From the NCBI GenBank assembly GCA_963811605.1, contig CAWESA010000010.1, positions 6,500 to 70,499 on the forward strand: a DNA stretch of 64,000 nt, in the 5' to 3' direction. Each line of letters starts with the position of its first letter. The first letter of the stretch is position 1. Below, piece after piece: positions 18,415 through 41,886 of this stretch. The notes under the pieces are model-generated. The model did not search any database. It saw nothing but the letters and a program-made list of their open reading frames with translations, and was not told the DNA's origin. Both the position numbers and the translations under genes were made by a program. Origin of the DNA: an uncultured delta proteobacterium. GTDB lineage: Bacteria > Desulfobacterota > Binatia > DP-6.

Positions 18415-19306
18415 CCCGCCCGGGTGTAGCATCGCGCCGCGCTGGCGCCAGCGGGGTCGCTGCGGGATCAGGCGGGATGCTCGACCTGGAACAGCGACCA
18501 CTCGCGGTCCAGCGATACGTCGGCTGCCTGACCGGACCGTCCGACCTGTCCACCAACAAGAGACATCTCGCGACGCTGGGCCGGCGGCGTCGCCCGTGAG
18601 GACCATCCTCGACACGGGCCCGCTGGTCGCGCTGCTCAATCGGAGGGATCGAGTATCATTCCTGGGCCACGAGGGCGTTCGTCTCGCCGACGCCTGCGTC
18701 GTCAGGATGAGCGAGCTCGCGCGGAGCTGCCGGGTGCTCACCCTCGATCGGCGCGGCTTCTCGTTCTTCCGGCGGAACGGTCGTGACGTCATCCCCCTGC
18801 TGGCCCCGACGGGTGACCGGCTCCGCGTCCTGCCCGGACTGCACGACAGGGGCGGTCGTCACCAGGAGGCGCCGTCTCAGGACCGGCGCGTAGCGGGCCA
18901 CCCCGAAGACGGCGGCATCGCCCGCCGCCCCGGTGAGCTCGACGACCCGCAGGCCGACCCCGTCGAGCACGGCGCCGTCGCGCATGAACCGGGCGATCCG
19001 GTCGCCGCCGGCCGGTCGCGACCGGAGGTCGCGCAGCCAGGGATGCGCCGCGGCGAGCGCCTTGCGCAGCGCGGGCGAGTGCCCGGCGTCCCCGGAGCGA
19101 GACGCGGCGACGGCTCGCTCGACGAGGCGGTGGGGCCCCGCGAGCACCCCCGTACCTCCGCCGCCCGCCGCCACCGGCGACACGCGAGGACCTTGCAGCC
19201 GAACAGGGGACGGGACGCGTCGCGTGCCGGCCAGTCGATGTGCCACTGTGCGCGAGGGACGTCCCACGGTGCACGCGGGTCGGGAAACGTGACGAGCGGC
19301 TCTCCC

Positions 19307-22016: not shown

Positions 22017-22028
22017 GCTCGTCCCCCG

Positions 22029-24830
<2,802 letters not shown>

Positions 24831-24898
24831 TGGATTGGGGGAACACTGTAGCGGGCGGGTGGAGCGATGGCCACAGTGCGCGAAAAAACGCTGTCAGG

Positions 24899-25210: not shown

Positions 25211-25234
25211 TACGCACCCAGACTACGCACCCAG
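25211..25234. repeat. Tandem 12-bp direct repeat (TACGCACCCAGA + CTACGCACCCAG) immediately 5' of the 24899..25210 gene
   Basis: Read directly in the sequence: tacgcacccagactacgcacccag. Confidence 0.6.
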
Positions 25235-25425
25235 GGCATGGTCCGCCCGCCGCCGTTGCGACCGGGACCCCCGTGGTAATGCCAGTCGAGGCAGCACCCG
25301 TCCACTGTCCCTGCTCGCCTCCTTCAAGCGGTCGGGCATTCCGGAGCGACACCCTGGCGATCGGTCCTGTCAGGATCGTGCGATATCAACCAGCTGGCGC
25401 ATGGGCGGCTTGTGCGCGACCGAGC

Positions 25426-28400
25426 TTAGTCCAGGGGGGCTCCTCGACCGATCCAATCCTCGACCACACGGAATTTTGCACCACCCACTTCGAAGCCCTG
25501 CACCGTCCCGCCGCCGTGCGGCACGCGCCCCGAAGGCTTGAGGAGCAACAAGCTCGTGTCGGGTCGCGTCGGCGTCACCCGGATGCGCGCGGGTCCGTAC
25601 GCCTGTTCCGGCGTGCCGCCGAGGTCGAACCCGTTCGGCGGGGTCGGTCCGGTGTGGCAGCCGCGGCACACCTCGAGCTGGGGCGAGACATCGGCTCGAA
25701 AAGCCGATCTCACAGTTCCGGTCTGCCGCGCGAGTACTGACACGAACGTTCGATCCGTGCCGGCGGTACCGAGCGACGGATCGCGCACGGCGAATTCGAC
25801 GGTGTGGAAACCCAGGGTCGCAGGTGCCAGTCGCGCGACAGCGTGGTCCGCGTCCGACAGCATCGGGGGCGCGCCGGCGGGGAAGGACACGATCGTCGCG
25901 GAGTGCTGCGCATCGTCGGGGAGGTTGAGGCTGAAGGAGGTATCCAGCACCGCAATGTTCCCGACGTCGACTTCACGCGGCGCGCGGACGCGCGCGATGA
26001 CGCGCCCGGGCCTCAGCTCACGTCCGCATGTGAGCAGCTCGCCGCGGGACAGGAACGTCTCGCCGGCGGACGGTTCGAGCAGATACGCGTGCGTTCTATC
26101 CGTCAGCGACAGAACTCCGGCATACGATCGACTCCGATCCAGCACTCCCCACGCGCGCCCGCCGTCGAGGCTCCGAACCGGATTTGCGGTCGACGACGAG
26201 GCGTCGGCATAGAGTACTCCGGGAGTGAACGGATCGAATGCCAGCCGCGTGAACGGCGTGAGCAGGCGCCACGTCCCGCCGCGGTCGTCGCTCCGCCACG
26301 CGGCCCGCCCCTCGGCCGGATCGTTCGAGAGGCCTTGGACGATCAGCACCTTCTCGTCGTGCGGATCTACGATGATGTTGTCGAGCAGCGCCGCCGGCTG
26401 CGTCGGGAGTGGTGTCCAGTTTGCACAGTCGGTCGTCTCTTGCGGGACGCCGTCGACGATGCCGAAGACCGTCGGAGGCTGTCCGGGTACGACGGAAGCT
26501 GGCGTGACGGCCCGCACGTTCTGGGCACAGAACGTCCAGGTGCCCTCCAGGTGGTAGAGGTCATGCTGCCCTGCGGGATCGCTGTTCTCGCGCAGCACCA
26601 GGTAGACCTGGGCCGGGGGCAGGCCGTCGGCGCTGGGGCCTATCGCGAGTTGCTCGACGAACCGTGGGGCCGGGAGGCCTTCCTCGAAGTCCGTCGTCGA
26701 CCAGTTGTTGTTCGAGCTTCGAAGGACACGGTCCGGTGTCACCAGCGCATACTTCACACGCGTGTCGAGCGGATCGAATGCCAGGGCGAGCGGGACACCC
26801 GAGGTGGGAAACCGCGTCATCGGGTTGCCCCAGCTCGCGCTGCTGGCGCCTACCGTGATCTGCCGCGCCTGGAGCTGCCCGTCGACCAGTCCTGCGGCGA
26901 GGAGGTGGGCAGGATTCCCGGGTTCGGCGGCGGCCACGGACACCACCATGCCCTTCCCCGACGCACCGAGAGACTCCCACGTGAACTCTCCCGGAAGGAC
27001 ATCACCGATGGTGGAAGGTCCCGTGCTGGAGCTCGTCCAGAATCTCTCGAAGGTGCGTCGAGCGAGCGGCATCTGACCGTCCTCGCACACCAGCTGTCGG
27101 ACGCCATTCGAGAGGAGGCGGAACTGCTCGAGCGAGTTCAGGGGTAGCGCGGTCTGCGCATGGCATCCACGACAGCCGTGGCGGATGGCGTCGTAGAGCG
27201 ACGGATCTTGCAGCCACCCGTTTGGAACGAACGATGAATCGAACGTCGTCCTCGGTAGTCCCTGGCCGCCATACCATCCCTCGATCAGCTCTTTGATCGC
27301 GGCAGAAGGCTGGTAAAGGCGCTGATCCGCGTCGAGAACCGCACGATTCAGCTCCCTGAACTGCGACTCCTGCGCGGCACGGCTGAGGTCCGGTCGGGGG
27401 GAATAGTCGAACGAATCGAGGTCGAAGGGAATGAAGCGAGCGCCGAGATTGCCCCCGGAGGGTGCGTAGCCCCCGGCCGCACGCCCGCCGTGGCAGGGAG
27501 TGCATAGCTCGGGCTGGAACTTCACGCCGCGCCCGTCGAGATCTATGCAGTCGAGCCGCGCGCCGGCGACGCCGTAGGTGAAGAACTTGATGAAGGGCTG
27601 CGCACTCGGATCGTCATCCGGCGAAGACAGCTCCATGGCGACGGTAGCCAGCAACCCCTTCTTGAGCGGATCTAGAGCCGCATCCGCGCTGCAGTAGTTC
27701 TCCACGTAGAAGGCGATTCGATGATCGTCGTCACGGCGCATCGACATGCGCCGGCCAAATCCCAGATCGTTCGCATTGACGTAGATCGCCAATGCCTGTG
27801 GTGGCCCAAACCCGTTGACCGTCCTCCAACCGTCGAGCGTCGTGCGGAGGTGATAGGGGTCGACGACGTCGTAGTAGTCCCCGGCATCGGGCGCTGGCGG
27901 GAGATCGCGGAAGGCGAAGCTGAGGAAGGAGTGGGGATCGGGAGGCAGATCGTCCGGCGCGACGTGCCCGCAGAGCGACGGCATGGTCGTGGTGGTCGTC
28001 GAGGTCGTAGTGGTCGCGACCGTCGTGGTGGTGGTGGACGGCGCCGTCGACGTCGTGGAGGTCGTGGTGGGCACGACGGTGCTGGGCGACGGTGCCGTCG
28101 TCGTCGTGGTCGCCTTGATCGTGCTGGTCGACGGCGCGATCGTCGTCGTGGCGGGTACGATCGTAGTGGGCGACGCGTCCGTCGTCGTGGTGGGGCCGGC
28201 GATGGTCGTCTGAGTGGACACGCTGGTCGAGGTGGTGGGGCGGGACGTCGACGTACTCGTCGAGGTCGTGGCCGATGTCGGCGCGCTCGTCGTGGTCGTC
28301 GTCGGAGACACCTCGGACTGGAGAACGCAGCGACAGGCGACGCACGACGAGCCCGGAGGACAGGCCGCCAGACCGGGCTCCCCGCAGGTTTCGCCCGGGT

Positions 28401-28866
28401 CGGCGGTTCCGTTGCTGCACCCCGGCGCAGGTGCAGGGCACCGGCAGCCCGCATCGCATACGTCGCCTCCCGCACACTGTCGGCCTGGCGGATCGCACTC
28501 CTCGCCACGGACAGCCGTAACGATACCGTCCCCGCACCTCGAGTCGCACGCCATGCCCCCGTCGCTGCAGCAACTCTTGCAGTCCCCGGCGAATCTGCGG
28601 CACTGCGACTTGAGCGTCCGCAACACCCGCTGACGGCATGCCCTCCTCGCATCCGCGTTGCAGTCTCGAGATGCACGCTCCCTAGCCTGCGTGATGCACG
28701 CTCGGAGCGCGCTGCGGCAATTCCTGGCACACGGACCGGGCCTCGGCACCGCGGCGGCACGCGCCGCGATGCCGGCCAGCGCGACGGCCACCAAGCACGA
28801 GGCAATTCGTGACCCGCGTGAACTGGAGGTGGACAACCTTCGCTGCCCCGTGCGTGGCCGTGGCAT
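25426..28866 (-). CDS. Large secreted multidomain protein: signal peptide, myxo-type Cys-rich repeats, Thr/Ser-rich linker, three CxxCH (PSCyt-like heme-binding) motifs, BNR/Asp-box repeats
   Basis: Start proposed at ATG 28866 (MPRPRTGQRRL...CLVAVALAGIAARAAAV). N-terminal CGDGIVTAVRGEECDPPG repeat. A ~110-aa T/S/P linker. CTPCHGG, CRGCHAQ and CRGCHTG followed by ...SLLLLKPSGRVPHGGG, reminiscent of planctomycete cytochrome c domains. SDDRGGTW and SLDGGRAW Asp-boxes. Confidence 0.8.
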   Translation of the reverse strand: MPRPRTGQRRLSTSSSRGSRIASCLVAVALAGIAARAAAVPRPGPCARNCRSALRACITQARERASRDCNADARRACRQRVLRTLKSQCRRFAGDCKSCCSDGGMACDSRCGDGIVTAVRGEECDPPGRQCAGGDVCDAGCRCPAPAPGCSNGTADPGETCGEPGLAACPPGSSCVACRCVLQSEVSPTTTTTSAPTSATTSTSTSTSRPTTSTSVSTQTTIAGPTTTTDASPTTIVPATTTIAPSTSTIKATTTTTAPSPSTVVPTTTSTTSTAPSTTTTTVATTTTSTTTTTMPSLCGHVAPDDLPPDPHSFLSFAFRDLPPAPDAGDYYDVVDPYHLRTTLDGWRTVNGFGPPQALAIYVNANDLGFGRRMSMRRDDDHRIAFYVENYCSADAALDPLKKGLLATVAMELSSPDDDPSAQPFIKFFTYGVAGARLDCIDLDGRGVKFQPELCTPCHGGRAAGGYAPSGGNLGARFIPFDLDSFDYSPRPDLSRAAQESQFRELNRAVLDADQRLYQPSAAIKELIEGWYGGQGLPRTTFDSSFVPNGWLQDPSLYDAIRHGCRGCHAQTALPLNSLEQFRLLSNGVRQLVCEDGQMPLARRTFERFWTSSSTGPSTIGDVLPGEFTWESLGASGKGMVVSVAAAEPGNPAHLLAAGLVDGQLQARQITVGASSASWGNPMTRFPTSGVPLALAFDPLDTRVKYALVTPDRVLRSSNNNWSTTDFEEGLPAPRFVEQLAIGPSADGLPPAQVYLVLRENSDPAGQHDLYHLEGTWTFCAQNVRAVTPASVVPGQPPTVFGIVDGVPQETTDCANWTPLPTQPAALLDNIIVDPHDEKVLIVQGLSNDPAEGRAAWRSDDRGGTWRLLTPFTRLAFDPFTPGVLYADASSSTANPVRSLDGGRAWGVLDRSRSYAGVLSLTDRTHAYLLEPSAGETFLSRGELLTCGRELRPGRVIARVRAPREVDVGNIAVLDTSFSLNLPDDAQHSATIVSFPAGAPPMLSDADHAVARLAPATLGFHTVEFAVRDPSLGTAGTDRTFVSVLARQTGTVRSAFRADVSPQLEVCRGCHTGPTPPNGFDLGGTPEQAYGPARIRVTPTRPDTSLLLLKPSGRVPHGGGTVQGFEVGGAKFRVVEDWIGRGAPLD
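27960..28330. repeat. Low-complexity GTCGTG/GTGGTC-rich tract encoding the Thr/Ser-rich linker of the large secreted protein
   Basis: Visible as a run of gtcgtggtggtcgtcga... units. Slippage-prone. Confidence 0.6.
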
Positions 28867-29001
28867 GAGCGAGCGACCGTAACGCAGCTCGCCACGGATC
28901 GTCAAGGAAAATATGGATAGTCAATAAGATTCTCTTGAGCAGCGTATTGATTCCATGTGTTCACACTTGCTATTCACGTGCAAGCGCATTAGGACAGGCC
29001 C

Positions 29002-29799
29002 GTGACGAGGAACCGCAGTGTGCTCGAGGACACACGAGCCAGCTCCGAACGACGCCGCTGGGTGTCGGCGCGACGGTTGGCGGGGGTCGTTGCGCTGTTC
29101 ATGGCCGGCACGCTGGTCGGGCGCCCACCGGTCTTCGCATGCGAGCTGGACGGCGTCGTCGGCCCGGGAGAAGAGTGCGACGACGGAAACGACAACGACG
29201 TCGACTGCTGCCGCAACGACTGCACGGCCAACGTCGGCGCCCCGTGCGGGCCGGGCATCACGTGTGGTGCCGATCGATGCAACGCCGCCGGCACGTGCGA
29301 GCGAGTGGCGGCGAATCGCGGCGTGGTCTGCGGGCCGGCAAGCAGTACGTGCGACCCGCCACCTCGATGCGACGGCTCGGGCACGGGGTGCCCCGCGGCA
29401 AAGACGGACAAGTCCCTCTGCGCCTGGAGCATCAAGCCAGCCGGCGACCCGCTGAGGGAGGGGATCTCCGCCCTGTGCAGCGTGCCAGACAATCTGGGTA
29501 CGTCGTCCGGCGGGACTCGCCGTTCCGACTGCGTCTGTGTGGGCAAAGAGCAGGGCGGGGGCAAGCGGCTCACGGCACGCGTGGCTCCGCGGCTCGTGGA
29601 CAAGACGGAAAGCCCCGATGGACCGCGGAAGGAGAAGAGGTTCTTCCTTCGTCTCAACGCGCGAGGCCGGCGGCTCTTGAAGCAGGGCGGAACCCTCACC
29701 GTCGAAGTGAACGCGGTCATTCACCACGGGGATACGGAGAAGGGGTCGGAGCGCAGCCCCCTCAAGAAGTTGATCATGCTGCTGCTACGGAGCAGGTGA
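29002..29799 (+). CDS. Secreted cysteine-rich protein with myxobacterial Cys-rich repeat (TIGR02232-like)
   Basis: Signal peptide (ARRLAGVVALFMAGTLVGRPPVFA), then CELDGVVGPGEECDDGNDNDVDCCRNDC ... CDGSGTGCP. Lies in the lower-GC islet. Confidence 0.7.
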   Translation: MTRNRSVLEDTRASSERRRWVSARRLAGVVALFMAGTLVGRPPVFACELDGVVGPGEECDDGNDNDVDCCRNDCTANVGAPCGPGITCGADRCNAAGTCERVAANRGVVCGPASSTCDPPPRCDGSGTGCPAAKTDKSLCAWSIKPAGDPLREGISALCSVPDNLGTSSGGTRRSDCVCVGKEQGGGKRLTARVAPRLVDKTESPDGPRKEKRFFLRLNARGRRLLKQGGTLTVEVNAVIHHGDTEKGSERSPLKKLIMLLLRSR

Positions 29800-29943
29800 A
29801 CCGCAACTGCCGGCACTTCAGACGGTCTTTCGGCCAGAACGCTCTCCAGGCGTTCACCTTTCCGAGGGAGCGGCACGGTCGTCCGCTGCACACACCTCGA
29901 GATCGGGGGAGACGACGAACATGCACACCGGCTCGAGGGAAAA

Positions 29944-31176
29944 TTGCATCGGCACTTCCGTCCGCACGCTCCCACGACCGCCGGAGCGCGCGTGGAGCGC
30001 CGTGCTCAACAGCTGTTCCAACGAGTGGGCGAAATGCCGGTCGTGATCGGGCGATCCGTAGGCGAAGGCGGTACCAACAACCCCGCCGATGTCACACAGA
30101 TCGACGGCTTGCTGGCGAAGGTCGGAGTGCTGAGAGCGATCCGGGCCACCGCCGCGACACGACACGTAGCGATAAAGCGATTCCAGCAGATATGGGGTCT
30201 CGGGTCTGGCGGCAAGTTCGACGGCCGGATCGACCCCAACGCGACCACTCTCAGGAGGCTCAACGAGACCGCGAGGGGACTGACCCTCAACGCGATCGGT
30301 CTCGGCACGATCAAACGCGGCGGCTATCTGATCTCACACACCCCCAAGGCACCGCCCGCCCCGTACAGGCTTCTGCTGGGGCCATCGGTCCAGGACTGCA
30401 TCGACGTGACCGGTCGTCCGAGCGCGGATCTCCTCGACGTCCCCAAGCTCGTCGAGCTGCTCAAGCTGATCCAGAAGCTCGGCAAGTGGGGACAGATGCT
30501 GAGCGTAAAATTGCTCGTCGTACTTGACGGGCAGCCCGTGTCGGAATCGCTTCCCCAAGTATTGAACTGCCCGGTACAGCCACATAACGGCAGGATGCTG
30601 CCGCTCGATTTAACCGGAAACGGGAGCAAGCTGACGTACCAGGGTGACCCGGACAGAAACGAATTCAGTGGTCGCCTTCTTCACAAGATCGAAGGTTTCG
30701 ACGGATACTTCTTCAAGTACGCCGGGAAGTTCGAGACCAGCGCGAGCCGGCGTGGCTTTGACTGCATCACTTACGTGGGAACCACATGCGGGGCCCCCGA
30801 TGACGCGATGACCGCGAGCCCGCAACTCGCGGATGCCATGAACGCCAAGCGGTGTTCGATCGAACGGCTCGTCTCGCAAGATTCGCCCACCGGCCAGACG
30901 CCACCGACGGCCGCCCCGCGGACCAAGAAGGTCACGCTCGAGCTGGAGCAGACGGATCCGCAGAACGTCAAGGACTTCTTCGCAAGCAAGCCGACCGGTT
31001 ACTACCTCATGTGGAGCGGCGGGCACATCGTGATCGTGGCCGATGGCTCGGTGTACGAATTCGCCGCATCCAGAAAGGGGTACGTCGCAACGCCGGTGTC
31101 CTCGTGGCTCGAGCCTTACAGGACCAAGAGGCTCACCGTTCGCGAGCTCCCGTCAAAGCCGGCTTTGGCCACCTGA
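29944..31176 (+). CDS. Peptidoglycan-binding domain protein with C-terminal NlpC/P60-like cysteine peptidase motifs, no signal peptide
   Basis: PG_binding_1-like region (VTQIDGLLAKVGVLRA...AIKRFQQIWGLGSGGKFDGRIDPNATTLRRLNE). C-terminal FDCITYVG (NlpC/P60 DCSG-like Cys) and GYYLMWSGGHIVIVADGSVYEFAAS (His motif). TTG start at 29944; GTG 29989 or ATG 30034 are alternatives. GGGGGAG SD-like motif ~35 nt upstream of the TTG (too far to act as its RBS). Confidence 0.6.
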   Translation: MHRHFRPHAPTTAGARVERRAQQLFQRVGEMPVVIGRSVGEGGTNNPADVTQIDGLLAKVGVLRAIRATAATRHVAIKRFQQIWGLGSGGKFDGRIDPNATTLRRLNETARGLTLNAIGLGTIKRGGYLISHTPKAPPAPYRLLLGPSVQDCIDVTGRPSADLLDVPKLVELLKLIQKLGKWGQMLSVKLLVVLDGQPVSESLPQVLNCPVQPHNGRMLPLDLTGNGSKLTYQGDPDRNEFSGRLLHKIEGFDGYFFKYAGKFETSASRRGFDCITYVGTTCGAPDDAMTASPQLADAMNAKRCSIERLVSQDSPTGQTPPTAAPRTKKVTLELEQTDPQNVKDFFASKPTGYYLMWSGGHIVIVADGSVYEFAASRKGYVATPVSSWLEPYRTKRLTVRELPSKPALAT

Positions 31177-31341
31177 GTCGCGCACAGACGGCTCGCGCCG
31201 CCAGCGCATCGCCGATCTGTCGATCGACCAGACGGGTCGTCTCCGCGATGGTCTCCGGGAGACGGTGAGCGGCCTGGCACTCGATCGGCCCTCGCGGTGT
31301 TCCGGCCGATCCCGATCACCCGACGCGTCCCCAGACGGAAT

Positions 31342-31352: not shown

Positions 31353-31452
31353 GAATATCACGGCACTTCCGTCGCTGTTTACCCTTGACCGCGACACTTG
31401 CTCGTGAGAATCGATGTGCCGCAACGAGACCACCCGCAGCCCGACGAGGTCC

Positions 31453-32039
31453 ATGATGCCAATGTACGCGTTGCAGTACGCAGTACTCGGCCTCATCTCT
31501 GCACGCGAGGCAGGGGTCCACGGCTACCGACTGAAGAACGAGTTCGAGGCCCTCTACGGCGACTTCTGGGCGCTCAACTACGGGCAGATGTACCGTACCC
31601 TCGACCGCCTCGAACGCGCAGGCTTGATCGAGGGCTTCGACGAGCTGCAGACGCGACGGCCCAATCGCAAGGTCTTCCGCATCACCAAGCAGGGCAGGAA
31701 GCGCCTCGACGCATGGCTCGTGCATCCACCGAGTCAGGAGCCGCGCCCGCTGCGCGACGAGCTTTCGCTGAAGCTGCTGTTCCTGGCGGAGGCGCGCCTC
31801 GATGAGATGCGCGCCATCATCAGCACGCAGCGCGCGCTCTACCTCCAGCACCTCAGCCGGCTCAACAAGCGCCGCGACACGGTCATGGACACCCGGGAGG
31901 GATTCGTCATGAAGCTGCTGTTGAGCCAGGCAGACATGCGGGTGCGCTCGGATCTCGCCTGGCTCGATCTGGTCGAGACGGAGGTGGCAAAGCGCTGCAC
32001 GGCGTCCGCGGCCGCACTCCCGCACTCCGGCAAGGAGCG

Positions 32040-32043
<4 letters not shown>
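31453..32043 (+). CDS. PadR family transcriptional regulator
   Basis: MYALQYAVLGLISAREAGVHGYRLKNEFE...WALNYGQMYRTLDRLERAGLIEG winged-helix signature. The listed ORF starts at 31414; ATG 31453 is the more likely start. Stop overlaps the next gene (ATGA). Confidence 0.85.
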
Positions 32044-32744
<701 letters not shown>

Positions 32745-32749
32745 TCCGG

Positions 32750-34815
32750 TCAGCGCCTCCGCGCCGCGCGCAGCCCGTCGGCGCGCTCCGCGAGCCGCTT
32801 CGACTCCGCGCCGTCACGCAGCGAGGGATCGGGCGCCTTGGCGAGCACCGCCGTCAGGTTGTCGAGCACCGCGACGTTGTCGGGCTCGCTCTCCAGAGCC
32901 ATCCGGTACTCGGCGATCGCCTCCCGCATCTTGCCCTGCTTCTGGTACGCGACGCCGAGGTTGTTGTGCGCGTCGGCGTAGCGCGGCCGCAGCGCGATCG
33001 CCTGCCGGTACTGCCCGATCGCGTCGCCGAGCCGCCCGCGCTGCTGGAGCGCCAGGCCGAGGTTGTAGTGCGCCTCCGCGTAGCCAGGGTCGAGCGCGAT
33101 CGCCTTCTCGAAGCGCGCCGTCGCCAGGTCGTCGCGCCCGAGCGCGAGGAGCGCGCGCCCGAGGTTGTTGTGCGCCAGCGCGAAGTCGGGATCGATGCGG
33201 AGCGCGGCCGTGTACTCGGTGACTGCCTCGTCGGCGCGGCCGGCCCGGGTGAGCGCGTTGCCGAGGTTGTTGTGGGCGCGCGCCATGTCGGGCGCGAGCG
33301 TGATCGCGGCGCGGTAGCTGGCGATCGCCTCGTCGGTGCGGCCGGCGGCGAGGAGCCCGTTGCCCAGGTTGAAGGCGGCGGCGGCGCTCATGGGGCTGAG
33401 CTCCTCGGCGCGACGGTAGTGCGCCAGCGCCTCGTCCACCTGCCCCGTCGCCACGAGCGCGTTCGCGAGGTTGGTGTGCGCGGAGGCGTACGCCGGCGTG
33501 ATCGCGAGCGCGCGGCGCAGGTGCTCGACGGCCTCGTCGATGCGGCCGGCGTCGAGCAGCGCCGCGCCCAGGTTGCCCTCCGCCAGGTCGTTGCGCCCGG
33601 TGACCGCGAGCGCGTGCCGCCACAAGGTCTCGCTGTCGCGCCAGGTCGCCGCCTGGCGGTGCGCCAGGACGGCGAGCGCGACGAGGCACGCCGTCGCGAC
33701 GGCACCCGCCGCCAGCCGGCGCACGCGCGACGCTCCGACCACGTCGGCCACGCCCCAGGCGACGGCGAGGAGCAGCCCGATCTGCGGCAGGTAGGTGTAG
33801 CGGTCGGCGCGCGCCTGGGCCCCCACCTGCACGATGCCGATCACCGGCGCCAGCATGACGAGGTACCAGAGCCAGCCGACCAGCAGGTACGGCCGCGCTC
33901 GCCGCTGGAGCACGACGGCCAGCGTGAGCGCCGCCAGGAGCGCGAGCGCCAGCACGATCGCCGCCGGCGACTGCTCGCGGTGCGGGATAGAACGCCGCCA
34001 GGCCGCTCGGCCAGACCAGCGCGCTGAGATACGCCACGCATGCCACCGCCGCGTTGCCGAGCCGGTCCGCGAGCGAGAACTGCTCGAACGGCTGGAGCGC
34101 CCCCGCCTGGGCCGCGCAGCGTCAGGACCACCGACGCCGCCGCCAGCGCGAGCAGCGGCAGCTTCTCCGGCAGCGTGCGGCGGAGCGGGCGCAACCGCCC
34201 GAGTGGCCAGACGTCGAGCAGCAGCAGCACCACCGGCACGGTCACCAGCATCGGCTTGCAGAGGAGCCCGAGCGCGAGCAGCGCGGCCACCGGGAGGTAG
34301 CGCGCGATCGAGGGCCGGCGCGTGTAGCCCGCGTACGCCAGCAGGACCAGCATGAAGAAGACGGCGCTGAGCACGTCCTTCCGCTCCGACACCCACGCCA
34401 CCGACTCGGCGCGCAGCGGGTGCACGGCGAACGCCGCCGCGACGAACGCGCTCGGCCAGAGCGCGCCCGTCATGGCGTGCAGCGCCAGGAGGAGCAGCAC
34501 CGAGGCCAGCGCGTGCAGCAGCACGCTGGTGACGTGGTGCCCGCCCGGCGCGAGCCCGAAGAGCTGCACGTCGAGCATGTGCGACAGCCAGGTGAGCGGG
34601 TGCCAGTTGTCGGCGTGGGTGGCGGCGAACGCCCAGGCGACGCCGTCGCGCGTGAGCCCGCGGGCGACGACCGGGTTGCGGAACAGGTAGGCGTCGTCGT
34701 CGTAGTTGACGAAGCCGTGCTGGCGCGTCTGGCCGAACACCAGCCAGACGGCGGCGACCAGCGCCACGCCGGCCGCCGCCAGCGCGAGCGGGCGGCGGCG
34801 ATCGCCCGGGGTCAC
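32750..34815 (-). pseudogene. TMTC-like GT-C fold glycosyltransferase (DUF1736-type membrane domain) fused to C-terminal TPR repeats; reading frame broken by two +1 insertions
   Basis: Membrane domain ...FVNYDDDAYLFRNPVVARGLT...NWHPLTWLSHMLDVQLFGL...HHVTSVLLHA...HPLRAESVAWVSERKDVL in frame 1. ...AAQAGALQPFEQFSLADRLGNAAVACVAYLSALVWPSGLAAFYP in frame 3. ...HREQSPAAIVLALA...IGIVQVGAQARADRYTYLP... plus ~9 TPR repeats in frame 2. The GTG start at 34815 overlaps the stop of the upstream gene. Confidence 0.75.
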
Positions 34816-35582
34816 GACGGCCGGTCTCTGGCGACCCCGGCGTCGACGGCGCGCCACGCCGGCGCGCGCAGCAGCGCGCCGGCGGCCTCGGCGAGCCGGC
34901 GCTCGGCCTCGAATTGCTGGCGGCCCACGCGCAGCACGGCGGGCCAGCACCACGGCCGCAGCAGCAGTGCGCGCGCCGCCGCGGCGTAGGCGATCTCGCC
35001 CGTGTCGGCGTCGATGGCCTCGGCCAGGAACGGCAGCTCGTCGGCGTGCGCGTCGAGCACCACGCGCAGCGCCGTGAACGGCACGCGGCGGCGGGCGGCC
35101 TCGCAGGCGAGCGCCCAGCTCTCCATGTCGACCAGCACGGCGCCGCAGCCGGCTGCCGCGGTCTTCTCGGCGGTGGAGACGAGCACGCCGGGCGTCGAGG
35201 CGATCACGCCGCGCTGCGCGCCGACCTCGGCCGCGGGCACCAGCGCCGGCCGGCGCGCTTCGGGGCGACAGGCGCGGTCGAGGCTCACCACCTCGGTGGC
35301 GACCACGACGTCGCCCGTGCGCACCCACGGCACCAGGCCGCCGCCGCAGCCGAGCGACAGGAACGCCCGCGCGGGCGGGATCGTCGCGGCGATGCTGGCG
35401 GCGCGCGCGGGGCCGATGCCCACCTGCGTCAGCAGGCACGATCCGCCGTCGCCGAGCCGCCCGCGCCACTGGCGCGGCCGCTCCGTCGGCTGCACGTCGG
35501 CCAGCCCTCCCAGCACCGCCCGCGTCTCCCAGCCGAGCGCCGTGAAAGCCGCGACGTCGACCGCCGGCGGCTGGCCGGTCAC
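34812..35582 (-). CDS. Purine nucleoside phosphorylase/MTA-nucleosidase family protein (HpnG/MqnB-like)
   Basis: ...TQVGIGPARAASIAATI...FLSLGCGGGLVPWVRTGDVVVATEVVSLD...AVLVDMESWALACEAARRRVPFTALRVVLD. The GTG start at 35582 overlaps the WS/DGAT stop (GTGA). Confidence 0.7.
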   Translation of the reverse strand: MTGQPPAVDVAAFTALGWETRAVLGGLADVQPTERPRQWRGRLGDGGSCLLTQVGIGPARAASIAATIPPARAFLSLGCGGGLVPWVRTGDVVVATEVVSLDRACRPEARRPALVPAAEVGAQRGVIASTPGVLVSTAEKTAAAGCGAVLVDMESWALACEAARRRVPFTALRVVLDAHADELPFLAEAIDADTGEIAYAAAARALLLRPWCWPAVLRVGRQQFEAERRLAEAAGALLRAPAWRAVDAGVARDRPS

Positions 35583-37034
35583 GCCACCCGGCTCGGCGCC
35601 GATCGCCCGCGCCGCTGGCGCTCCGGCGCGACCCGCTGGATGGGCTGGCTCGCGGGGCGCACGCCGGCCAGGCCGCGCAGCTCGTCGTAGCTGTCGCGCA
35701 GGTACGTGACGAGGCGCGCGCCGTCGGTGATGAGGCCGGGATCGAGGTTGATGCCGATGGTGATCGAGTCGGCGTAGCTCAGGATGGCGAAGGCGAGCCC
35801 CACGGCCTGCGCGAGCGGCACGATGGGGATCATGCGGTCGAGCCGCCGTCCCTGGAAGTAGAGCGACACCGGCGGCCCCGGCACGTTGGTGACGACGGTG
35901 TTGACCGGCGTGCTCTGCACCCAGCCGAGCTGGTGCTGGAGCGGCGCCGGCACGTAGCTGAGCAGCTCCATGAGCCGCGTCATGCGCCGCGACTCGCCCG
36001 AGCGCTTCACCTGCTCCATCGCGGTGCGCACCTGGCGGAAGCGCTCGAGCGGGTCGAGGATGCCGACCGGGAGCGGCGCCATCATGGCCGACACGCGGTT
36101 GCCGAGGTGCAGGTGCTCGTCCTTCGTGCGCACGTTCACCGGGCACATGGCGCGCAGCTCGACGCGATCGGGGTTCCAGCCGCGGTCCTCCAGGTAGCGC
36201 CGCAGCGCGCCGGTGATGCTGGCGAGGATGACGTCGTTGACCGTGCCGCCGAGGCGGTTCTTCACCGCCTTCATCTCGTTGAGCGAGAAGGTGATCCACT
36301 CGATCCGGCGCTGCGAGCCGACGAAGCCGTTGAACGGCGTGTACGGCAGCGGCGCCAGGACCAGGCGCACCATGTCGGCCACCGCGCTCGCCAGCTCCTG
36401 CACCTCCTCCCACGCGCGCGCGGGCCGGCGCACCAGCTCGCGCAGCGCCCGTACGCCCTCCAGCGTGGCGGCGGCGCCGTCCGCCAGCGCGCGCCACGCC
36501 TGCTCCGACGGCGTCGGCGCCGGTGGCAGCGCGGTCGGCGCGGGGGCGGGCGGTGGAGGCGGCGGGTCGGGGGTGACGTCGAACATCACGCCGAGGAGCT
36601 GGACGCCGCTCACGCCGTCGATCATGGCGTGGTGCACCTTGGCGAGGATGGCGCTGCGGTCGCCGCGGTAGCCGTCGATCTGGTGCAGCTCCCACAGCGG
36701 CAGGCGGCGGTCGAGCGGCTCGGCGAACAGCCGGCTCGCCAGGCTGCGCAGCTGCTCGTCGTCGCCCGCGCCGCGCAGCCGGTGGCGCTTCACGTGCTGC
36801 CGGATGTCGAAGGCGCGCGCCGGCTCCCAGGTGGGATGGCCCAGGTTCAGCGGCACCGGCACCACGCGCTGCGTGTAGCGCGGGATCAAGATGCAGCCGG
36901 GCCTCGAGCTCGGCCAGCGTGCGCTCGTAGTCGAGCGGGCCGTCCGTGGTGTAGACGCCGCCGACGTGCAGCAGCTGGCCGGCGCGCTCGAGGTGAAAGA
37001 ACGCCGCGTCCAGCGCGGTCATGCGGTCGCCCAT
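35579..37034 (-). pseudogene. Wax ester synthase/diacylglycerol acyltransferase (WS/DGAT), one +1 frameshift near codon ~50
   Basis: N-terminus MGDRMTALDAAFFHLERAGQLLHVGGVY...LEARLHL in one frame. Continues IPRYTQRVVPVPLNLGHPTWEP...LPLWELHQIDG...KVHHAMIDGVSG (HHxxxDG active site) in the next frame (extra T near 36875). Confidence 0.8.
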
Positions 37035-37045
37035 GGTGATTCCTC

Positions 37046-37252
37046 TCAGGTGCCCTCGAGGACGAACGTGACCTGCACGGTGGCGCGGTACTCGGCGATC
37101 TTCCCGTCCTCCACCGCGGCGTTCTCCTTCAGCACCTCGATGCCGGTGATGCCGCGCAGGGTCTTGTTGGCGCGCTCGAGCGCGTTGTGGACCGCGTCTT
37201 CCCAGCTGTGCGGCGATGCCCCGATGATCTGCGTGATGCGCGCGACGGCCAT
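37046..37252 (-). CDS. Dodecin (flavin-binding) family protein, copy 1
   Basis: 68 aa: MAVARITQIIGASPHSWEDAVHNALERANKTLRGITGIEVLKENAAVEDGKIAEYRATVQVTFVLE. Matches the dodecin length and motif pattern. Confidence 0.8.
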   Translation of the reverse strand: MAVARITQIIGASPHSWEDAVHNALERANKTLRGITGIEVLKENAAVEDGKIAEYRATVQVTFVLEGT

Positions 37253-37256
37253 GTGG

Positions 37257-37457
37257 TCACTCCAGGAGGAAGATGATCTTCATCTCGACGCGGTACTCGG
37301 TGATCTGGCCGCGCTCCACCTTGACCCGCTTCCCCAGCACCTCGAGCCCGGTGATGTTGCGCAGCGTCCGCGCGGCCCGCGCTAGCCCCTCCTCGACGGC
37401 TTCCCGGAACCCGTCGGTGGAGGAAGCGACGATCTCGGTCACGCGCGCGACTGCCAC
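37257..37457 (-). CDS. Dodecin (flavin-binding) family protein, copy 2 (tandem paralog)
   Basis: 66 aa: MAVARVTEIVASSTDGFREAVEEGLARAARTLRNITGLEVLGKRVKVERGQITEYRVEMKIIFLLE. Roughly half identity with copy 1. Confidence 0.8.
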   Translation of the reverse strand: MAVARVTEIVASSTDGFREAVEEGLARAARTLRNITGLEVLGKRVKVERGQITEYRVEMKIIFLLE

Positions 37458-37548
37458 CCATGTGGGCTAGCAGCGTGTCCGCGGATGCGCAAGCCACGTC
37501 GCGCCCCATCCGGGCAGATCGGCCCCGCACGCCGCCCGAGGTTGAGGA

Positions 37549-40143
37549 ATGCGCGCCGGCGTGCGACTCGGGGGAGCGCGCATGCCCCTCCTCCTCCTCG
37601 CCCGCCGCCAGCTCCGAAGCCATGCCGCCCGCGCCGCGCTCACCGCGGGCGGGATCGCCTGCGGCGTCGCCCTGGTGGTGGCGATCGAGGTCATCAACGC
37701 CAGCACCCTCGGCGCCTTCACCGACGCCATCGACGACCTCGCCGGCACGTCGGCGCTCCAGGTGCGCGGGCGCGGCAGCTTCTCCGAGGACGTCGCGGAC
37801 GCGGTGCGCAACGTGCGCGGCGTCGATCACGCCGTGCCCATCGTCACCGACACCTTCTTCATGGTCGACGGGCCGGCGGGCGGCGAGGCGCTGTCGGTGT
37901 TCGCGGCCGACGTCACCGACGGCCACGCCATCAAGACGCTGCGCCTGGTGCGCTCCGGCAAGCGCGTGGTGGACGACCCGCTGTCCTTCCTGGTCGATCC
38001 CGCCAGCATCATCCTGACCGACGTGTTCGCGCAGCGCATCGGCGCCACCCTCGGCAGCGAGCTGCGGCTGCGCACCCCGGGCGGCATCCGGACCTTCACC
38101 GTGCGCGGCATCCTGCCGCCGGGCGGCGTGGGACGCGCCTTCGGCGGCAACCTGCTGCTGATGGACGTCCTCGGCGCGCAGACCGTGCTCGGGCGCGAGC
38201 GCACCATCGACCAGGTCGACATCACCTTGAAGCCCGGCATCACCGTCGAGCAGGTCGAGCCGGCGATCCGCGCCCGGCTCCCCGCCGGCGTCGAGGCGCT
38301 CCAGCCGGCCCGGCGCGGCGAGCAGATCGAGCGCATCCTGAGCTCGTTCCGGACCCTGCTCTCGGGCATCTCCGGGCTGGCGCTCCTGTCGGCGATCTTC
38401 ATCGTGACCAGCGCCGTCTCGACCAGCATCGCGGCGCGCCGCCAGCAGATCGGGCTGCTCCGCTGCATCGGCGCGCAGCGGCGCCACGTGCTGCGGCTCG
38501 TGCTCGGCGAGGCGCTGCTGCTGGGCGTGCTCGGCACCGCGGCCGGCATCCCGCTCGGGCTCCTCCTCGCCCGTCTCCTGCTCGACACGGTCACCGAGTC
38601 GGCGGAGCTGGTGTTCTCGATCCGGCTCTTCACCTCCGCCATCGACGTCTCGCCCGCCGCCATCGCGCTCGGCGTCGTGGCCGGTCTCGGCGCCACGCTG
38701 GTCGCCGCCTGGCTGCCGGCGCGCACCGCCACCGCCATCTCGCCCATGACCGCCGTCCGCACGCCGGCGGCGGCGGCCGGCGGACGGCGCTGGCCGTCGC
38801 CCGGCATCGTGCTGATCGCGATCGCGGTGGCGCTGGCGGGCTTCCTGCTCCAGGTCCGCCTCGGCTCGGGCTGGGCCGGCAACGTCGCCGCCGTCGCCAC
38901 CGACATCGCGCTGGTGTGCGTGTTCATGCGCCTCGCCGGACGCCTCGCCGCCGTGGTGCTGGGGCCGCTGCGCGAGCGCGTCGGCTTCGCCGGCCGCATG
39001 GCCGTCGACCGGCTGGCCCGCATCCCGGACCAGCTCGCGCTCGCCGGCGGCGTGCTCGCCCTGGGACTGGGGCTGATGCTGATGGCGGGGACGCTGTCGC
39101 GCAGCTTCGAGGAGTCGGTGCTCGACTTCATCCGCCACCAGGTGCGCGCCGACCTGGTGGTGGCGTCGACCGCCAGCACGGGCTGGATCGAGTCGCCGCT
39201 GCCGGAATCGATCGGCGAACGGCTCGCCGCCCTGCCCGGCGTCACGCGCGTCGAGCGCGTGCGGCTGGCCGAGCACGACTTCCGTGGCCAGCGCATCAGC
39301 GTCGACTCGCTCGACGCGAGCGCGTTCGCGCCCGAGCGCACCGGCGACTTCGTCTTCTCGACCGGCGACCCGGCGGCCGCGCTCGCCGCCGTGCGTGGCG
39401 GCGACGCGGTGCTGGTGTCGCGCAACTTCGCGCGCCAGTTCGCCGTCGGCGTCGGCGACCGGCTCGCGATCGACACGCCGACCGGTCCCTGGAATCCCAC
39501 CGTCGCCGGCGTCGTGGTCGACTACGTCTCGCCGCGCGGCAGCATCGTCACCACGCGCGACGTGTGGACGCGCCGCTGGGGGGACCACGCCGTCAACCGC
39601 TTCCACGTCTCGCTCGCGCCGGGCGTCGATCTGGATGCGGTCCGGCACGCCATCGCCGCCGACGTCGGGCGCGACGAGGGGCTCAAGGTGCTGACCCAGC
39701 GCGAGCTGTACGCCTACCACCAGGACGCGGTGCGGCGGTCGTTCCGCTTCACGCACGCGCTCGAGGTGCTGCCGCTCCTGGTCGCGGCGCTGGGGCTGGC
39801 CGAGGCGCTCCTGGCCGTCGCGCTCGACCGCCGGCGCGAGCTGGCGCTGCTGCGCGCCGCCGGCACCACGCGGCGCCAGATCGCGCGCAGCGTGGTGGCC
39901 GAGGCCGCCGGCGTGGGCGCGCTCGGCTTCATCGGCGGCCTCGCCATGGGGCTCGTGCTGTCCGTCCTCTGGGTGCGGGTCAACTTCGCCTACCAGCTCG
40001 GCTGGGACATCGACTTCTACCTCGCGCTGGGCAGCGTCCCCGTCGCCGCGCTCGCCGCCGCCCTGGTGAGCGTGCCGGCGGCCCTGCTCCCGGCGCGCCA
40101 CATCGCTCGCCTGCCCGTCCTCGAGGCCTTGCGCGACGAGTGA
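37549..40143 (+). CDS. ABC transporter permease with two FtsX domains (MacB/YbbP-type)
   Basis: 864 aa. Two blocks of 4 TM helices, each preceded by a large extracytoplasmic domain. No ATPase gene adjacent. Confidence 0.85.
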   Translation: MRAGVRLGGARMPLLLLARRQLRSHAARAALTAGGIACGVALVVAIEVINASTLGAFTDAIDDLAGTSALQVRGRGSFSEDVADAVRNVRGVDHAVPIVTDTFFMVDGPAGGEALSVFAADVTDGHAIKTLRLVRSGKRVVDDPLSFLVDPASIILTDVFAQRIGATLGSELRLRTPGGIRTFTVRGILPPGGVGRAFGGNLLLMDVLGAQTVLGRERTIDQVDITLKPGITVEQVEPAIRARLPAGVEALQPARRGEQIERILSSFRTLLSGISGLALLSAIFIVTSAVSTSIAARRQQIGLLRCIGAQRRHVLRLVLGEALLLGVLGTAAGIPLGLLLARLLLDTVTESAELVFSIRLFTSAIDVSPAAIALGVVAGLGATLVAAWLPARTATAISPMTAVRTPAAAAGGRRWPSPGIVLIAIAVALAGFLLQVRLGSGWAGNVAAVATDIALVCVFMRLAGRLAAVVLGPLRERVGFAGRMAVDRLARIPDQLALAGGVLALGLGLMLMAGTLSRSFEESVLDFIRHQVRADLVVASTASTGWIESPLPESIGERLAALPGVTRVERVRLAEHDFRGQRISVDSLDASAFAPERTGDFVFSTGDPAAALAAVRGGDAVLVSRNFARQFAVGVGDRLAIDTPTGPWNPTVAGVVVDYVSPRGSIVTTRDVWTRRWGDHAVNRFHVSLAPGVDLDAVRHAIAADVGRDEGLKVLTQRELYAYHQDAVRRSFRFTHALEVLPLLVAALGLAEALLAVALDRRRELALLRAAGTTRRQIARSVVAEAAGVGALGFIGGLAMGLVLSVLWVRVNFAYQLGWDIDFYLALGSVPVAALAAALVSVPAALLPARHIARLPVLEALRDE

Positions 40144-40165
40144 CGTTCGCCCGATAGGAGGCGGC

Positions 40166-41224
40166 ATGGACTTCGGCATCGCCCTCGCTCCCGGCGCCGA
40201 CGCGTGGAAGACCGTCCAGCGCGCCGAGGCGCTCGGCTTCTCGCACGCCTGGCTGTACGACACCCAGCTTCTCTGCGCCGACGTGTTCGTCGCCATGGCG
40301 GTCGCCGCCGCCAACACGCGGCGCATCACCATCGGTCCCGGCGTGCTGGTGCCGTCGAACCGGATCGCGCCCGTGGCGGCGAACGGCCTGGCGTCGCTCA
40401 ACAAGCTGGCGCCGGGGCGGATCGCGCTCGGCATCGGCACCGGCTTCACCGCGCGCCTCACCATGGGCCAGGGGCCGATGAAGCTGTCGGCGCTGCGCGA
40501 GTACCTCGGGGTGGTGCGCGGCATGCTGCGCGGCGAGACCGTCGAGTGGACCGACGAGCAGAAGACGCCCCACAAGGTGCGGTTCTTGAACCCGGAGGCG
40601 GGACTCATCGACATCGATGCGCCCATCCCGGTCCACCTGTCGGCCTTCGCGCCCAGGGCGCGCGCCCTGGCGGCGCGCGAGTGCGACGGCTGGATGAACT
40701 TCGTCACCGTCGTCCCGATGGCGCTCTACGAGCTCGAGGAGATGAAGGCGACGTGCGCCGCGGTGGGCCGCGCGCCCGAGACGCTCTACAAGACCGGCTT
40801 CACCCTCGGCTGCGTGCTGCGACCCGGCGAGGACGCCAACTCGCCGCGGGCGCGCGCGCAGGCCGGGCCGCTCGCCGTCGTCCTCTTCCACGGCGTCATC
40901 GAGGGCACCGTCAAGGGCGCCATCCTGCCGGCGGAGCTGCAGGCCGCCGTCGCCGAGTACCGCAAGCTCTACGAGACGTACCAGCCGCCCGACGCGCGCT
41001 ACCTGCAGCTCCACACCGGACACCTGCTCTTCGTCCGTCCCGAGGAGGAGCGCTTCCTCTCCGACGAGCTGATCCGCATGTCGACCTTCACCGCCGAGCG
41101 CGACGAGCTGGTCGATCGCGTCCGCATGCTGCGCGACGCCGGCTACCAGCAGCTCGCCGTGCAGCTCGTGCCGGGCCACGAGGACGCGATGGAGGACTGG
41201 ATGGAGGTCTTCAGCCGCGCATGA
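40166..41224 (+). CDS. Luciferase-like monooxygenase (LLM) family F420/flavin-dependent oxidoreductase
   Basis: N-terminus MDFGIALAPGADAWKTVQRAEALGFSHAWLYDTQLL, typical of LLM class F420-dependent enzymes. 352 aa TIM-barrel length. Confidence 0.85.
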   Translation: MDFGIALAPGADAWKTVQRAEALGFSHAWLYDTQLLCADVFVAMAVAAANTRRITIGPGVLVPSNRIAPVAANGLASLNKLAPGRIALGIGTGFTARLTMGQGPMKLSALREYLGVVRGMLRGETVEWTDEQKTPHKVRFLNPEAGLIDIDAPIPVHLSAFAPRARALAARECDGWMNFVTVVPMALYELEEMKATCAAVGRAPETLYKTGFTLGCVLRPGEDANSPRARAQAGPLAVVLFHGVIEGTVKGAILPAELQAAVAEYRKLYETYQPPDARYLQLHTGHLLFVRPEEERFLSDELIRMSTFTAERDELVDRVRMLRDAGYQQLAVQLVPGHEDAMEDWMEVFSRA

Positions 41225-41886
41225 GCGCCCCCGGGACGCTCGACGTCGCCACCATCGGCGAGGACGTGCCGCTGCTGGAGGGCATCCGGACCACGCGCGC
41301 GCTCCGCCGCCTGCGTCCCGATCCGGTCCCCGCGGCGCTCATCCGCAAGGTGTGCGAGGCGGGCACCTTCGCCCCCAGCGGCGGCAATCGCCAGCCGTGG
41401 CTCTTCGTCGCGGTGACCGACCCGGCGCGCCGCCAGTGGGTGGCGGATCGCTACCGGCCGGTGTTCCACCGCTACATCGCGCCCGCCGTCGAGGCGGCGA
41501 AGGACCCGGCCTATCCCGAGGCGCAGCGGCGGAACATGCGCTCGGCCATCTGGCTCGCCGATCACCTCCACGAGGTGCCCGTCCACCTGTTCGTCGCCGG
41601 CTGGACGCGGCGCGGCGCGCCGCAGCTCCAGGCGCTCTTCCCCGCCGTGCAGAACGTGCTCCTCGCGTGCCGCGCCGTCGGCCTCGGCGCGTCGCTCACC
41701 CAGCTCCACCTCGCCGCCGGACGGGAGATCGACACCTGGCTCGGTCTGCCCGACGGCTGTCCCACCTGCGCGCTGCTCCCGATCGGCTGGCCGCGCGGAC
41801 GCTACGCGCGCCCCCAGCGCCGCTCGGTGGACGGCTGCCTGTTCTGGGATCGCTACGATCCGCCGCCGCACGGATCGCGCGGCTGA
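41221..41886 (+). CDS. Nitroreductase family protein
   Basis: ...IRTTRALRRLRPDPVPAALIRKVCEAGTFAPSGGNRQPWLFVAV... ATG overlaps the LLM stop (ATGA). Confidence 0.85.
   Translation: MSAPGTLDVATIGEDVPLLEGIRTTRALRRLRPDPVPAALIRKVCEAGTFAPSGGNRQPWLFVAVTDPARRQWVADRYRPVFHRYIAPAVEAAKDPAYPEAQRRNMRSAIWLADHLHEVPVHLFVAGWTRRGAPQLQALFPAVQNVLLACRAVGLGASLTQLHLAAGREIDTWLGLPDGCPTCALLPIGWPRGRYARPQRRSVDGCLFWDRYDPPPHGSRG

Follow-up and report, generated by a model that had tools for sequence, protein, structure and literature searches.

The 64,000-nucleotide stretch of contig CAWESA010000010.1 analysed here (assembly GCA_963811605.1, an uncultured delta proteobacterium; "the window" below) carries on its minus strand what appears to be a five-gene operon, encoding two dodecins, a wax ester synthase/diacylglycerol acyltransferase (WS/DGAT), an HpnG-type nucleosidase, and a membrane protein that joins a glycosyltransferase C (GT-C) fold to an array of tetratricopeptide repeats (TPR). 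With a probability of about 0.65, we read this arrangement as a lineage-specific operon variant in which a dodecin-dodecin-WS/DGAT unit absorbed hpnG, the gene for the nucleosidase, and the GT-C/TPR gene was added later. The first four genes would constitute a block specific to uncultured high-GC bacteria whose named relatives are Candidatus Binatia. An earlier note on this DNA had described only three genes, which would form the 3′ part of the operon, and had looked to the Myxococcota for their relatives. The metagenome-assembled genomes (MAGs) of the named relatives are instead assigned to Candidatus Binatia or labelled "uncultured delta proteobacterium". Long-read MAG projects are the source of several relatives (contigs named "contig_NNN", some labelled MFD).

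Dodecin, WS/DGAT and nucleosidase genes form a conserved block

Synteny was assessed by scanning metagenome contigs with a WS/DGAT alignment, which yielded 76 distinct loci with a WS/DGAT identity of at least 55%. The number of informative loci differs with the question asked: 62 for the dodecin side, 50 for the nucleosidase side and 29 for the hpnH side. Two dodecin genes lay upstream of WS/DGAT in 61 of 62 loci, and the nucleosidase gene came no more than 150 nt after WS/DGAT in 34 of 50 loci and 0.16-3 kb after it in five more. It was not seen in the other 11 loci, at least three of which carry the hpnG operator described below either near the contig end or just after WS/DGAT; some of these loci are therefore cut or displaced and do not truly lack the gene. 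All contigs with close relatives of the nucleosidase had the domain order Dodecin-Dodecin-WS_DGAT-PNP_UDP_1, and further contigs extended it with Radical_SAM/DUF3463. The closest fully sampled relative shows a luciferase-like gene, a MacB permease gene, the two dodecin genes, WS/DGAT, the nucleosidase gene, a convergent ATP-binding cassette (ABC) ATPase gene and PadR, with no GT-C/TPR gene.

Two control sets lacked these associations. WS/DGAT homologues that were 32-39% identical had no dodecin or nucleosidase neighbours, and no WS/DGAT or dodecin gene was near any of the 78 HpnG-like loci examined in other phyla, 49 of which had hpnH nearby. The synteny thus supports a putative, lineage-specific link between WS/DGAT and hopanoid side-chain genes. 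One assembly (GCA_975321975.1) carries the dodecin-dodecin-WS/DGAT-nucleosidase block twice, in diverged copies on separate contigs (L004 and L005); these represent either two strains binned together or a duplication of the block.

The nucleosidase is best assigned to HpnG

HpnH makes adenosylhopane, from which HpnG removes adenine to yield ribosylhopane (PMC12583986). The 256-residue nucleosidase of the window, identical to an entry in a public protein collection (P0001), scored best against the HpnG model (TIGR03468; 98.6 bits, cutoff 187.1). Models for 5′-methylthioadenosine (MTA)/S-adenosylhomocysteine nucleosidases failed (PRK05584, 33.9 bits versus 169; TIGR01704, 17.6 versus 73.8). The futalosine hydrolase MqnB was rejected as a candidate: its model (TIGR03664) reached 36.9 bits against a cutoff of 124.7, and no mqn genes occurred in any related neighbourhood viewed.

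The window protein has metagenomic relatives 43-82% identical to it; ordinary HpnG-like proteins come next, at 37% identity or below. In the distant half of this clade (41-58% identical to the window protein), a radical-SAM/DUF3463 gene lies directly downstream of the nucleosidase gene; in locus L008 the gene in this position scored 354.7 bits on the HpnH model TIGR03470 (cutoff 225). Overall, hpnH directly followed the nucleosidase gene in 20 of 29 informative loci, including all 20 from the sister clade, and the nine loci without it are exactly those in which WS/DGAT is at least 66% identical to that of the window. The hpnH-adjacent nucleosidase of L008 also falls under the HpnG cutoff (119 bits), and the curated cutoff misses the whole clade, hpnH-adjacent members included. 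Because sister-clade orthologues are directly followed by hpnH, we infer from position and sequence that the window nucleosidase is the HpnG orthologue of its lineage, with a predicted HpnG activity. Of the two families named in the earlier note for this PNP_UDP_1-fold protein, HpnG and MqnB, only the first is retained.

Residues E19, M153, E154 and D177 were invariant across 24 clade members, and the motifs WE (19), DMES (152-155) and VLD (175-177) were invariant or nearly so. The acidic positions presumably correspond to Glu12, Glu174 and Asp197 of MTA/S-adenosylhomocysteine nucleosidase (MTAN). Beside the catalytic-type Glu there is a subclade-specific change, DMESW versus (D/E)MESA in hpnH-linked members.

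Like the hpnG-hpnH pairs of known hpn clusters (Methylobacterium, Rhodopseudomonas, Burkholderia and Streptomyces), the lineage has a PNP_UDP_1 nucleosidase with HpnG as its best model, encoded in the sister clade directly upstream of an HpnH that exceeds its cutoff; the hpnH-linked control loci share this linkage. In contrast to those pairs, the nucleosidase scores under the HpnG cutoff, its gene lies downstream of dodecin-dodecin-WS/DGAT, as in none of the 78 other HpnG loci, and no other hpn gene is nearby. The window gene differs further in having no adjacent hpnH and in overlapping the WS/DGAT stop codon. In long relatives no other hopanoid genes were found downstream of hpnH, where genes for SBP56, a cupin and unannotated open reading frames (ORFs) are located.

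Remodelling of the WS/DGAT-hpnG junction

In the hpnH-linked clade, WS/DGAT and hpnG are separated by a spacer of ~60-110 nt. It contains (L087-L148; for example, L100 8460-8520) a 16-bp palindrome, CTGACCG-NN-CGGCCAG, followed by TTGCCTGACCGATCGGTTTGTAGTA with a second palindromic half-site, and resembles a tandem palindromic operator with promoter-like sequence. The palindrome occurs once per locus and remains beside hpnG when a transposase or another gene is inserted between the two modules, which makes hpnG-hpnH of this clade look like a separately regulated unit under a putative operator of its own.

The window's subclade has neither the operator-bearing spacer nor an adjacent hpnH; the window itself does not contain the palindrome, matches to it being fewer than expected by chance. 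Here the GTG start of hpnG overlaps the TGA stop of WS/DGAT in 11 of 12 distinct loci (the window and ten others), compared with none of ~28 sister-clade loci. The overlap is therefore a derived, conserved character of the subclade and not a chance feature of one genome.

These arrangements are consistent with an ancestral order of dodecin-dodecin-WS/DGAT followed by a separately regulated hpnG-hpnH pair, which would supply the two earliest intermediates in the synthesis of the extended hopanoid side chain. Loss of the operator spacer and of the adjacent hpnH would then have left the hpnG start overlapping the WS/DGAT stop, so that the nucleosidase would now be expressed as part of the WS/DGAT operon. 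The GT-C/TPR gene would have been inserted later into a variable slot downstream.

The genes found between WS/DGAT and hpnG in relatives encode an IS1595-family transposase (L122 8475-9494), a sulfotransferase (L109 5585-6487) and a spermine-synthase-like membrane protein (L118 8462-10918). A second IS1595 transposase gene lies ~2.3 kb downstream of WS/DGAT in L125 (10779-11765), where hpnG was not seen.

The operon probably begins at two dodecin genes

Long spurious ORFs are common in the window because its G+C content is ~72%. Real frames were therefore picked by third-codon-position GC, and the whole window was scanned for frame changes with a frame-state Viterbi model. The minus strand is coding without a break from 37457 to 32750. 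The three consecutive coding regions linked in the earlier note are real, being backed by third-codon-position GC of 0.92-1.00 and by domain matches, and both GTGA overlaps reported there are present (Table 1); the WS/DGAT and GT-C/TPR genes, however, are not single ORFs. The coding signal in the GT-C/TPR frame begins at ~34819, and the source gene call (P0122) uses the GTG start in the overlap.

Both proteins encoded upstream of WS/DGAT match the dodecin family over its full length (86.8 and 77.6 bits, cutoff 22.5). Dodecin 2 matches the solved bacterial dodecins 6r1e, 2vxa and 3oqt, and dodecin 1 also has dodecin matches in the PDB. The two paralogues are 47% identical to each other, while dodecin 2 is 73-92% identical to its counterparts in relatives and dodecin 1 is 84-99% identical in all relatives but one. 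They resemble the dodecins of Thermus thermophilus (TTHA1431), M. tuberculosis (Rv1498A) and Streptomyces in their full-length PF07311 match and in E-values of 1e-6 to 1e-11 to solved dodecins. Unlike those proteins, they are two diverged tandem paralogues, each very strongly conserved, encoded upstream of WS/DGAT. A passage of PMC8044443 that cites Meissner 2007 describes dodecin as a store of flavin and coenzyme A (CoA). The dodecins of this operon most likely buffer flavin, and possibly CoA.

A promoter-like motif precedes the first dodecin gene. The pattern CTTGCGC-N16-18-TAC is kept in all 21 aligned loci (the window and 20 relatives) of both subclades and in the relatives ends 6-9 nt before the dodecin 2 start, a spacing that suggests a leaderless or very short-leader transcript. 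Given the two dodecin genes directly 5′ of WS/DGAT and this conserved motif, we place the beginning of the operon at the dodecins, upstream of position 37034, where the earlier note had started it. A strict scan for sigma-70 promoters and terminators was uninformative and did not call the TTGCGC-N17-TAGCCC motif, and an Rfam search for riboswitches and known RNAs gave no match in or upstream of the operon.

Table 1 Coordinates of the operon, its frame changes and the lpdA control within the window.
Feature	Position	Strand	Evidence or remark
Promoter-like motif TTGCGC-N17-TAGCCC	37464-37492	minus	ends 6 nt before the dodecin 2 start codon
Dodecin gene 2, first gene of the operon (66 aa, GTG start)	37257-37457	minus	PF07311, 8.8e-22, full length
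Dodecin gene 1 (68 aa)	37046-37252	minus	PF07311, 1.2e-24
WS/DGAT acyltransferase gene (484 aa once repaired, one extra base)	35579-37034	minus	TIGR02946, PF03007, PF06974
Single extra base, +1 frame change in WS/DGAT	36888-36891	minus	frame plot, three-frame translation, DNA alignment with 10 relatives
GTGA overlap, WS/DGAT stop with nucleosidase GTG start	35579-35582	minus	read directly in the sequence
HpnG-type nucleosidase/phosphorylase gene (256 aa, intact)	34812-35582	minus	PF01048 (PNP_UDP_1 fold), 8.2e-18
GTGA overlap, nucleosidase stop with presumed GT-C/TPR GTG start	34812-34815	minus	read directly in the sequence
GT-C-fold membrane domain and TPR array gene (687 aa once repaired, two frame breaks)	32750-34815	minus	TPR families; model of an N-domain homologue
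Single extra base, first frame change of the GT-C/TPR gene	34112-34116 (near 34114)	minus	frame plot, translation, alignment with L086
Extra T, second frame change of the GT-C/TPR gene	33987	minus	frame plot, translation, alignment with L086
sucA	22029-24893		upstream of lpdA
sucB	20706-22028		upstream of lpdA
lpdA	19304-20708	minus	frame changes near 19872 and 19815

A distinct WS/DGAT subfamily

With the extra base removed, the WS/DGAT protein scored 427.2 bits on TIGR02946 (cutoff 309.95) and matched PF03007 at positions 1-263 of 263 and PF06974 at 2-144 of 145. Its HHxxxDG catalytic motif is KVHHAMIDGVSG (HHAMIDG), in which H134, H135, D139 and G140 are invariant in seven orthologues. These features confirm the enzyme family proposed in the earlier note. 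The protein resembles AtfA of Acinetobacter baylyi (7nxg) and the Marinobacter WS/DGAT (6chj) in its full-length two-domain match and HHxxxDG motif, with E-values of ~1e-41 to both. In contrast to these enzymes, it represents a distinct subfamily, 57-87% identical within the group and 32-39% identical to the next WS/DGATs found, whose genes almost always stand behind two dodecin genes, and its gene is frameshifted in this assembly. Its most likely products are wax esters or triacylglycerol, formed from acyl-CoA.

Upstream of the block, L119, L127, L129 and the P0044 contig carry a CruF-like carotenoid hydratase gene (Caroten_synth) together with an AsmA-like gene, and in L008 (7106-7909) a CruF-like gene directly adjoins hpnG-hpnH. 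A carotenoid alcohol is therefore conceivable as another acceptor for WS/DGAT.

The GT-C/TPR gene is probably a recent addition

The C-terminal TPR array (residues ~410-660) matched TPR_11 (3.2e-62), TPR_1 (6.1e-50) and other TPR families. The 390-residue N-terminal membrane domain (N-domain) had no Pfam match at E up to 10, no NCBIfam match and no PDB sequence match. It has more than 7,600 bacterial homologues at E ≤1e-3; the named ones come from Verrucomicrobiota (Chthoniobacterales, Limisphaerales), and some carry the labels "protein O-mannosyl-transferase" or "TPR repeat protein" in source databases. A fold search with the model of a full-length homologue (pLDDT 92.9) matched TPR proteins only. 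When an N-domain-only homologue was modelled (P0229, pLDDT 85), the top 23 PDB matches were all GT-C enzymes, among them ArnT, STT3/AglB/PglB, Pmt1/2/4, DPY19 and AftA (probability 0.87-1.0 for the 19 best and 0.41-0.57 for the other four; E 0.01-0.9; TM-score 0.28-0.47), with a sharp drop thereafter.

Judged by the predicted fold of this homologue, the gene product is a GT-C/TPR enzyme with a TMTC-like architecture, from a common bacterial family. Like TMTC1-4 and the PMT-type GT-C O-mannosyltransferases, it combines an N-terminal multi-pass domain, whose first loop has an invariant DD pair, with an array of TPRs at the C terminus. Unlike in TMTC1-4, no match to the TMTC-specific domain DUF1736, which we take to be PF08409, was found in the window N-domain (Pfam E up to 10) or in five N-domain-only homologues, one of which gave a sub-threshold PMT_2 match (22.3 bits, cutoff 26.1). 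The fold E-values are also weak, and the huge bacterial family does not fit a eukaryote-like transfer. The earlier description as a TMTC-like GT-C/TPR protein therefore survives, but its designation as eukaryote-like goes too far.

Among the related loci, a GT-C/TPR gene follows the nucleosidase gene only in the window and in L086, whose DNA is 82-87% identical. The conserved three-gene order that the earlier note had put forward for testing thus holds for the WS/DGAT-nucleosidase link and fails for the GT-C/TPR gene. The slot after the nucleosidase gene varies in other relatives, where it holds genes for an HD protein, ACP_PD/hexapeptide proteins, a CHRD protein, a LysR protein or a chloramphenicol-phosphotransferase-like protein. 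In L086 (2635-5268), genes for a PEMT/ICMT-like methyltransferase, an alpha/beta hydrolase and an S-adenosylmethionine methyltransferase stand between the GT-C/TPR homologue and the ABC ATPase gene; the window has none of the three.

Frame changes point to assembly error or decay

WS/DGAT opens at ATG 37034 in one frame and carries on from ~36889 in another, and so is not an uninterrupted reading frame. The window reads CATCT[T]GATC at this site, compared with CA-CCTGATC in 10 relatives. The GT-C/TPR gene changes frame twice, and the span assigned to it in the earlier note, 34815 to 32750, is 2066 nt and not a multiple of 3. Once the extra bases were removed, both proteins aligned end to end with their homologues, with all invariant residues placed. 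Programmed +1 frameshifting in WS/DGAT was ruled out, since none of the 10 relatives has the extra base and all of them read through the site.

The Viterbi scan detected only two further frame changes in the 64 kb, both in lpdA of the sucA-sucB-lpd operon and ~57 nt apart; all five changes are single extra bases. We treat the lpdA changes as a positive control for assembly indel errors. As a housekeeping gene thus carries the same kind of lesion, and as relatives stem from long-read MAG projects, assembly error is likely the simpler explanation. Genuine decay, which would make WS/DGAT and the GT-C/TPR gene pseudogenes in this organism, is the less probable of the two accounts but deserves serious weight: three of the five changes sit inside this 4.3-kb block, the L086 homologue of the GT-C/TPR gene changes frame in the TPR region even though its contig is a short-read assembly (megahit), and the source annotation calls the GT-C/TPR product truncated, at 324 aa. 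In addition, comparison of the window with L086 gave a ratio of nonsynonymous to synonymous substitutions (dN/dS) of 0.39 for the GT-C/TPR N-domain and 0.07 for the neighbouring ABC and PadR genes; the value for the TPR segment was discarded, its segments being mis-paired at 21% identity. Besides the lpdA lesions, the long-read origin of relatives and the uniform nature of all five changes, decay is opposed by WS/DGAT itself, which has no other lesion and every invariant residue intact.

For the GT-C/TPR gene, real decay remains plausible. Its two frame changes, the frame change in L086 and the elevated dN/dS together suggest an accessory gene under relaxed constraint; it is probably a recent add-on that is decaying and lies outside any shared pathway.

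Flanking regions of the window

The minus-strand block from the dodecins to the GT-C/TPR gene is bordered by plus-strand genes, with PadR and an ABC ATPase on one side (31414-32744) and a MacB/FtsX permease, a luciferase-like oxidoreductase and a nitroreductase on the other (37549-41886). The ATPase and permease of an apparent single transporter are thus split by the inverted block, and the P0002 contig is laid out alike. The 6.1-kb stretch 25211-31338, where the third-position GC signal is weak, has no counterpart in the close relative L086 and likely represents a foreign island. A 1159-aa ORF inside it (minus strand, 25426-28905) encodes a signal peptide, a Cys-rich module, three CxxCH-like motifs and a Thr/Ser/Pro linker ~110 aa long, and a 410-aa ORF lies at 29944-31176; neither gave a Pfam or PHROG match. 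No tRNA gene was found in the window.

Inherited neighbourhood or shared chemistry

Several observations weigh against the reading in which a dodecin-dodecin-WS/DGAT unit absorbed hpnG. Across the group, gene order is kept as a backbone all the way from xerC-hslVU to gyrAB, so the WS/DGAT-hpnG adjacency may be partly historical. The modules also occur singly, as hpnG-hpnH without WS/DGAT in L008 and as WS/DGAT followed by gyrA in L131, L133 and L146. The nucleosidase scores well below the curated HpnG cutoff (98.6 versus 187 bits), and hpnH is absent from the 64-kb window. Nor did the top 120 HpnH matches include any from the 1-1.8 Mb contigs of three subclade genomes, a weak negative given that HpnH has thousands of close homologues. 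If hpnH were truly missing from these genomes, the nucleosidase could not act on adenosylhopane. Finally, the frameshifted WS/DGAT may be non-functional in this genome.

The loss of the adjacent hpnH raises the possibility that the HpnG descendant of the hpnH-less subclade was repurposed and hydrolyses another 5′-substituted adenosine, such as MTA, 5′-deoxyadenosine or, in connection with the WS/DGAT operon, a lipid-linked adenosine. The gene has been conserved, with invariant catalytic-type residues, despite the loss of its operator and adjacent hpnH; the DMESW form next to the catalytic Glu is specific to the subclade, and the fusion to WS/DGAT is new. We nevertheless consider repurposing unlikely: hpnH may lie elsewhere in the genome, locus L007 keeps the MESA form although it, too, has the overlap and lacks a neighbouring hpnH, and the MTAN and futalosine hydrolase models score far below HpnG.

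Alternatively, WS/DGAT could esterify an extended hopanoid made by HpnH and HpnG (ribosylhopane, bacteriohopanetetrol or a derivative) to fatty-acid esters, with the dodecins as cofactor carriers. WS/DGAT enzymes accept many hydroxylated lipids, and our literature searches found no hopanoid-acylating enzyme. This subfamily, and only this one, adjoins hpnG(-hpnH) (39 of 50 informative loci), and one subclade shows a translational fusion of hpnG to it. That subclade, however, is the one without adjacent hpnH; the ancestral hpnG-hpnH pair has its own operator and promoter region, a transposase, sulfotransferase or other gene can separate the modules, and each is found without the other. We therefore regard hopanoid acylation as improbable. 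Slightly more doubtful still is its fuller form, in which the subfamily acylates extended hopanoids such as ribosylhopane, as a bacterial counterpart of steryl-ester formation, and the nucleosidase of the hpnH-less subclade perhaps acts on a new lipid-linked adenosine. A chemical pathway common to WS/DGAT and HpnG is possible. The separate operator, the tolerated insertions and the finding of either module on its own speak against an obligate link.

The lipid or glycolipid modification route proposed in the earlier note for WS/DGAT, the nucleosidase and the TMTC-like glycosyltransferase is close to refuted: although GTGA overlaps tie the three genes in this genome and L086 repeats the order of the last two, no other related locus has the GT-C/TPR gene, not even the most closely related neighbourhood that was fully sampled, its family of more than 7,600 homologues occurs in unrelated contexts, and the gene is frameshifted twice here and again in the short-read assembly of L086.

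Our literature searches found no publication joining "dodecin" with "wax ester synthase", or combining "hopanoid", "hpnH" and "wax ester synthase", and none linking dodecins or WS/DGAT with hopanoid genes. To the extent of these searches, hopanoid side-chain genes beside WS/DGAT or dodecin genes had no earlier report. If the link is only positional, the operon is an ordinary lineage-specific variant. The block persists as a stable feature throughout its lineage, an uncultured, Binatia-like soil group, and offers a concrete candidate for examining whether bacteria esterify hopanoids. For annotation, it means that the curated HpnG cutoffs miss this clade. For operon evolution, it would document a clean step from a separately regulated hpnG to one translationally fused to the neighbouring operon.

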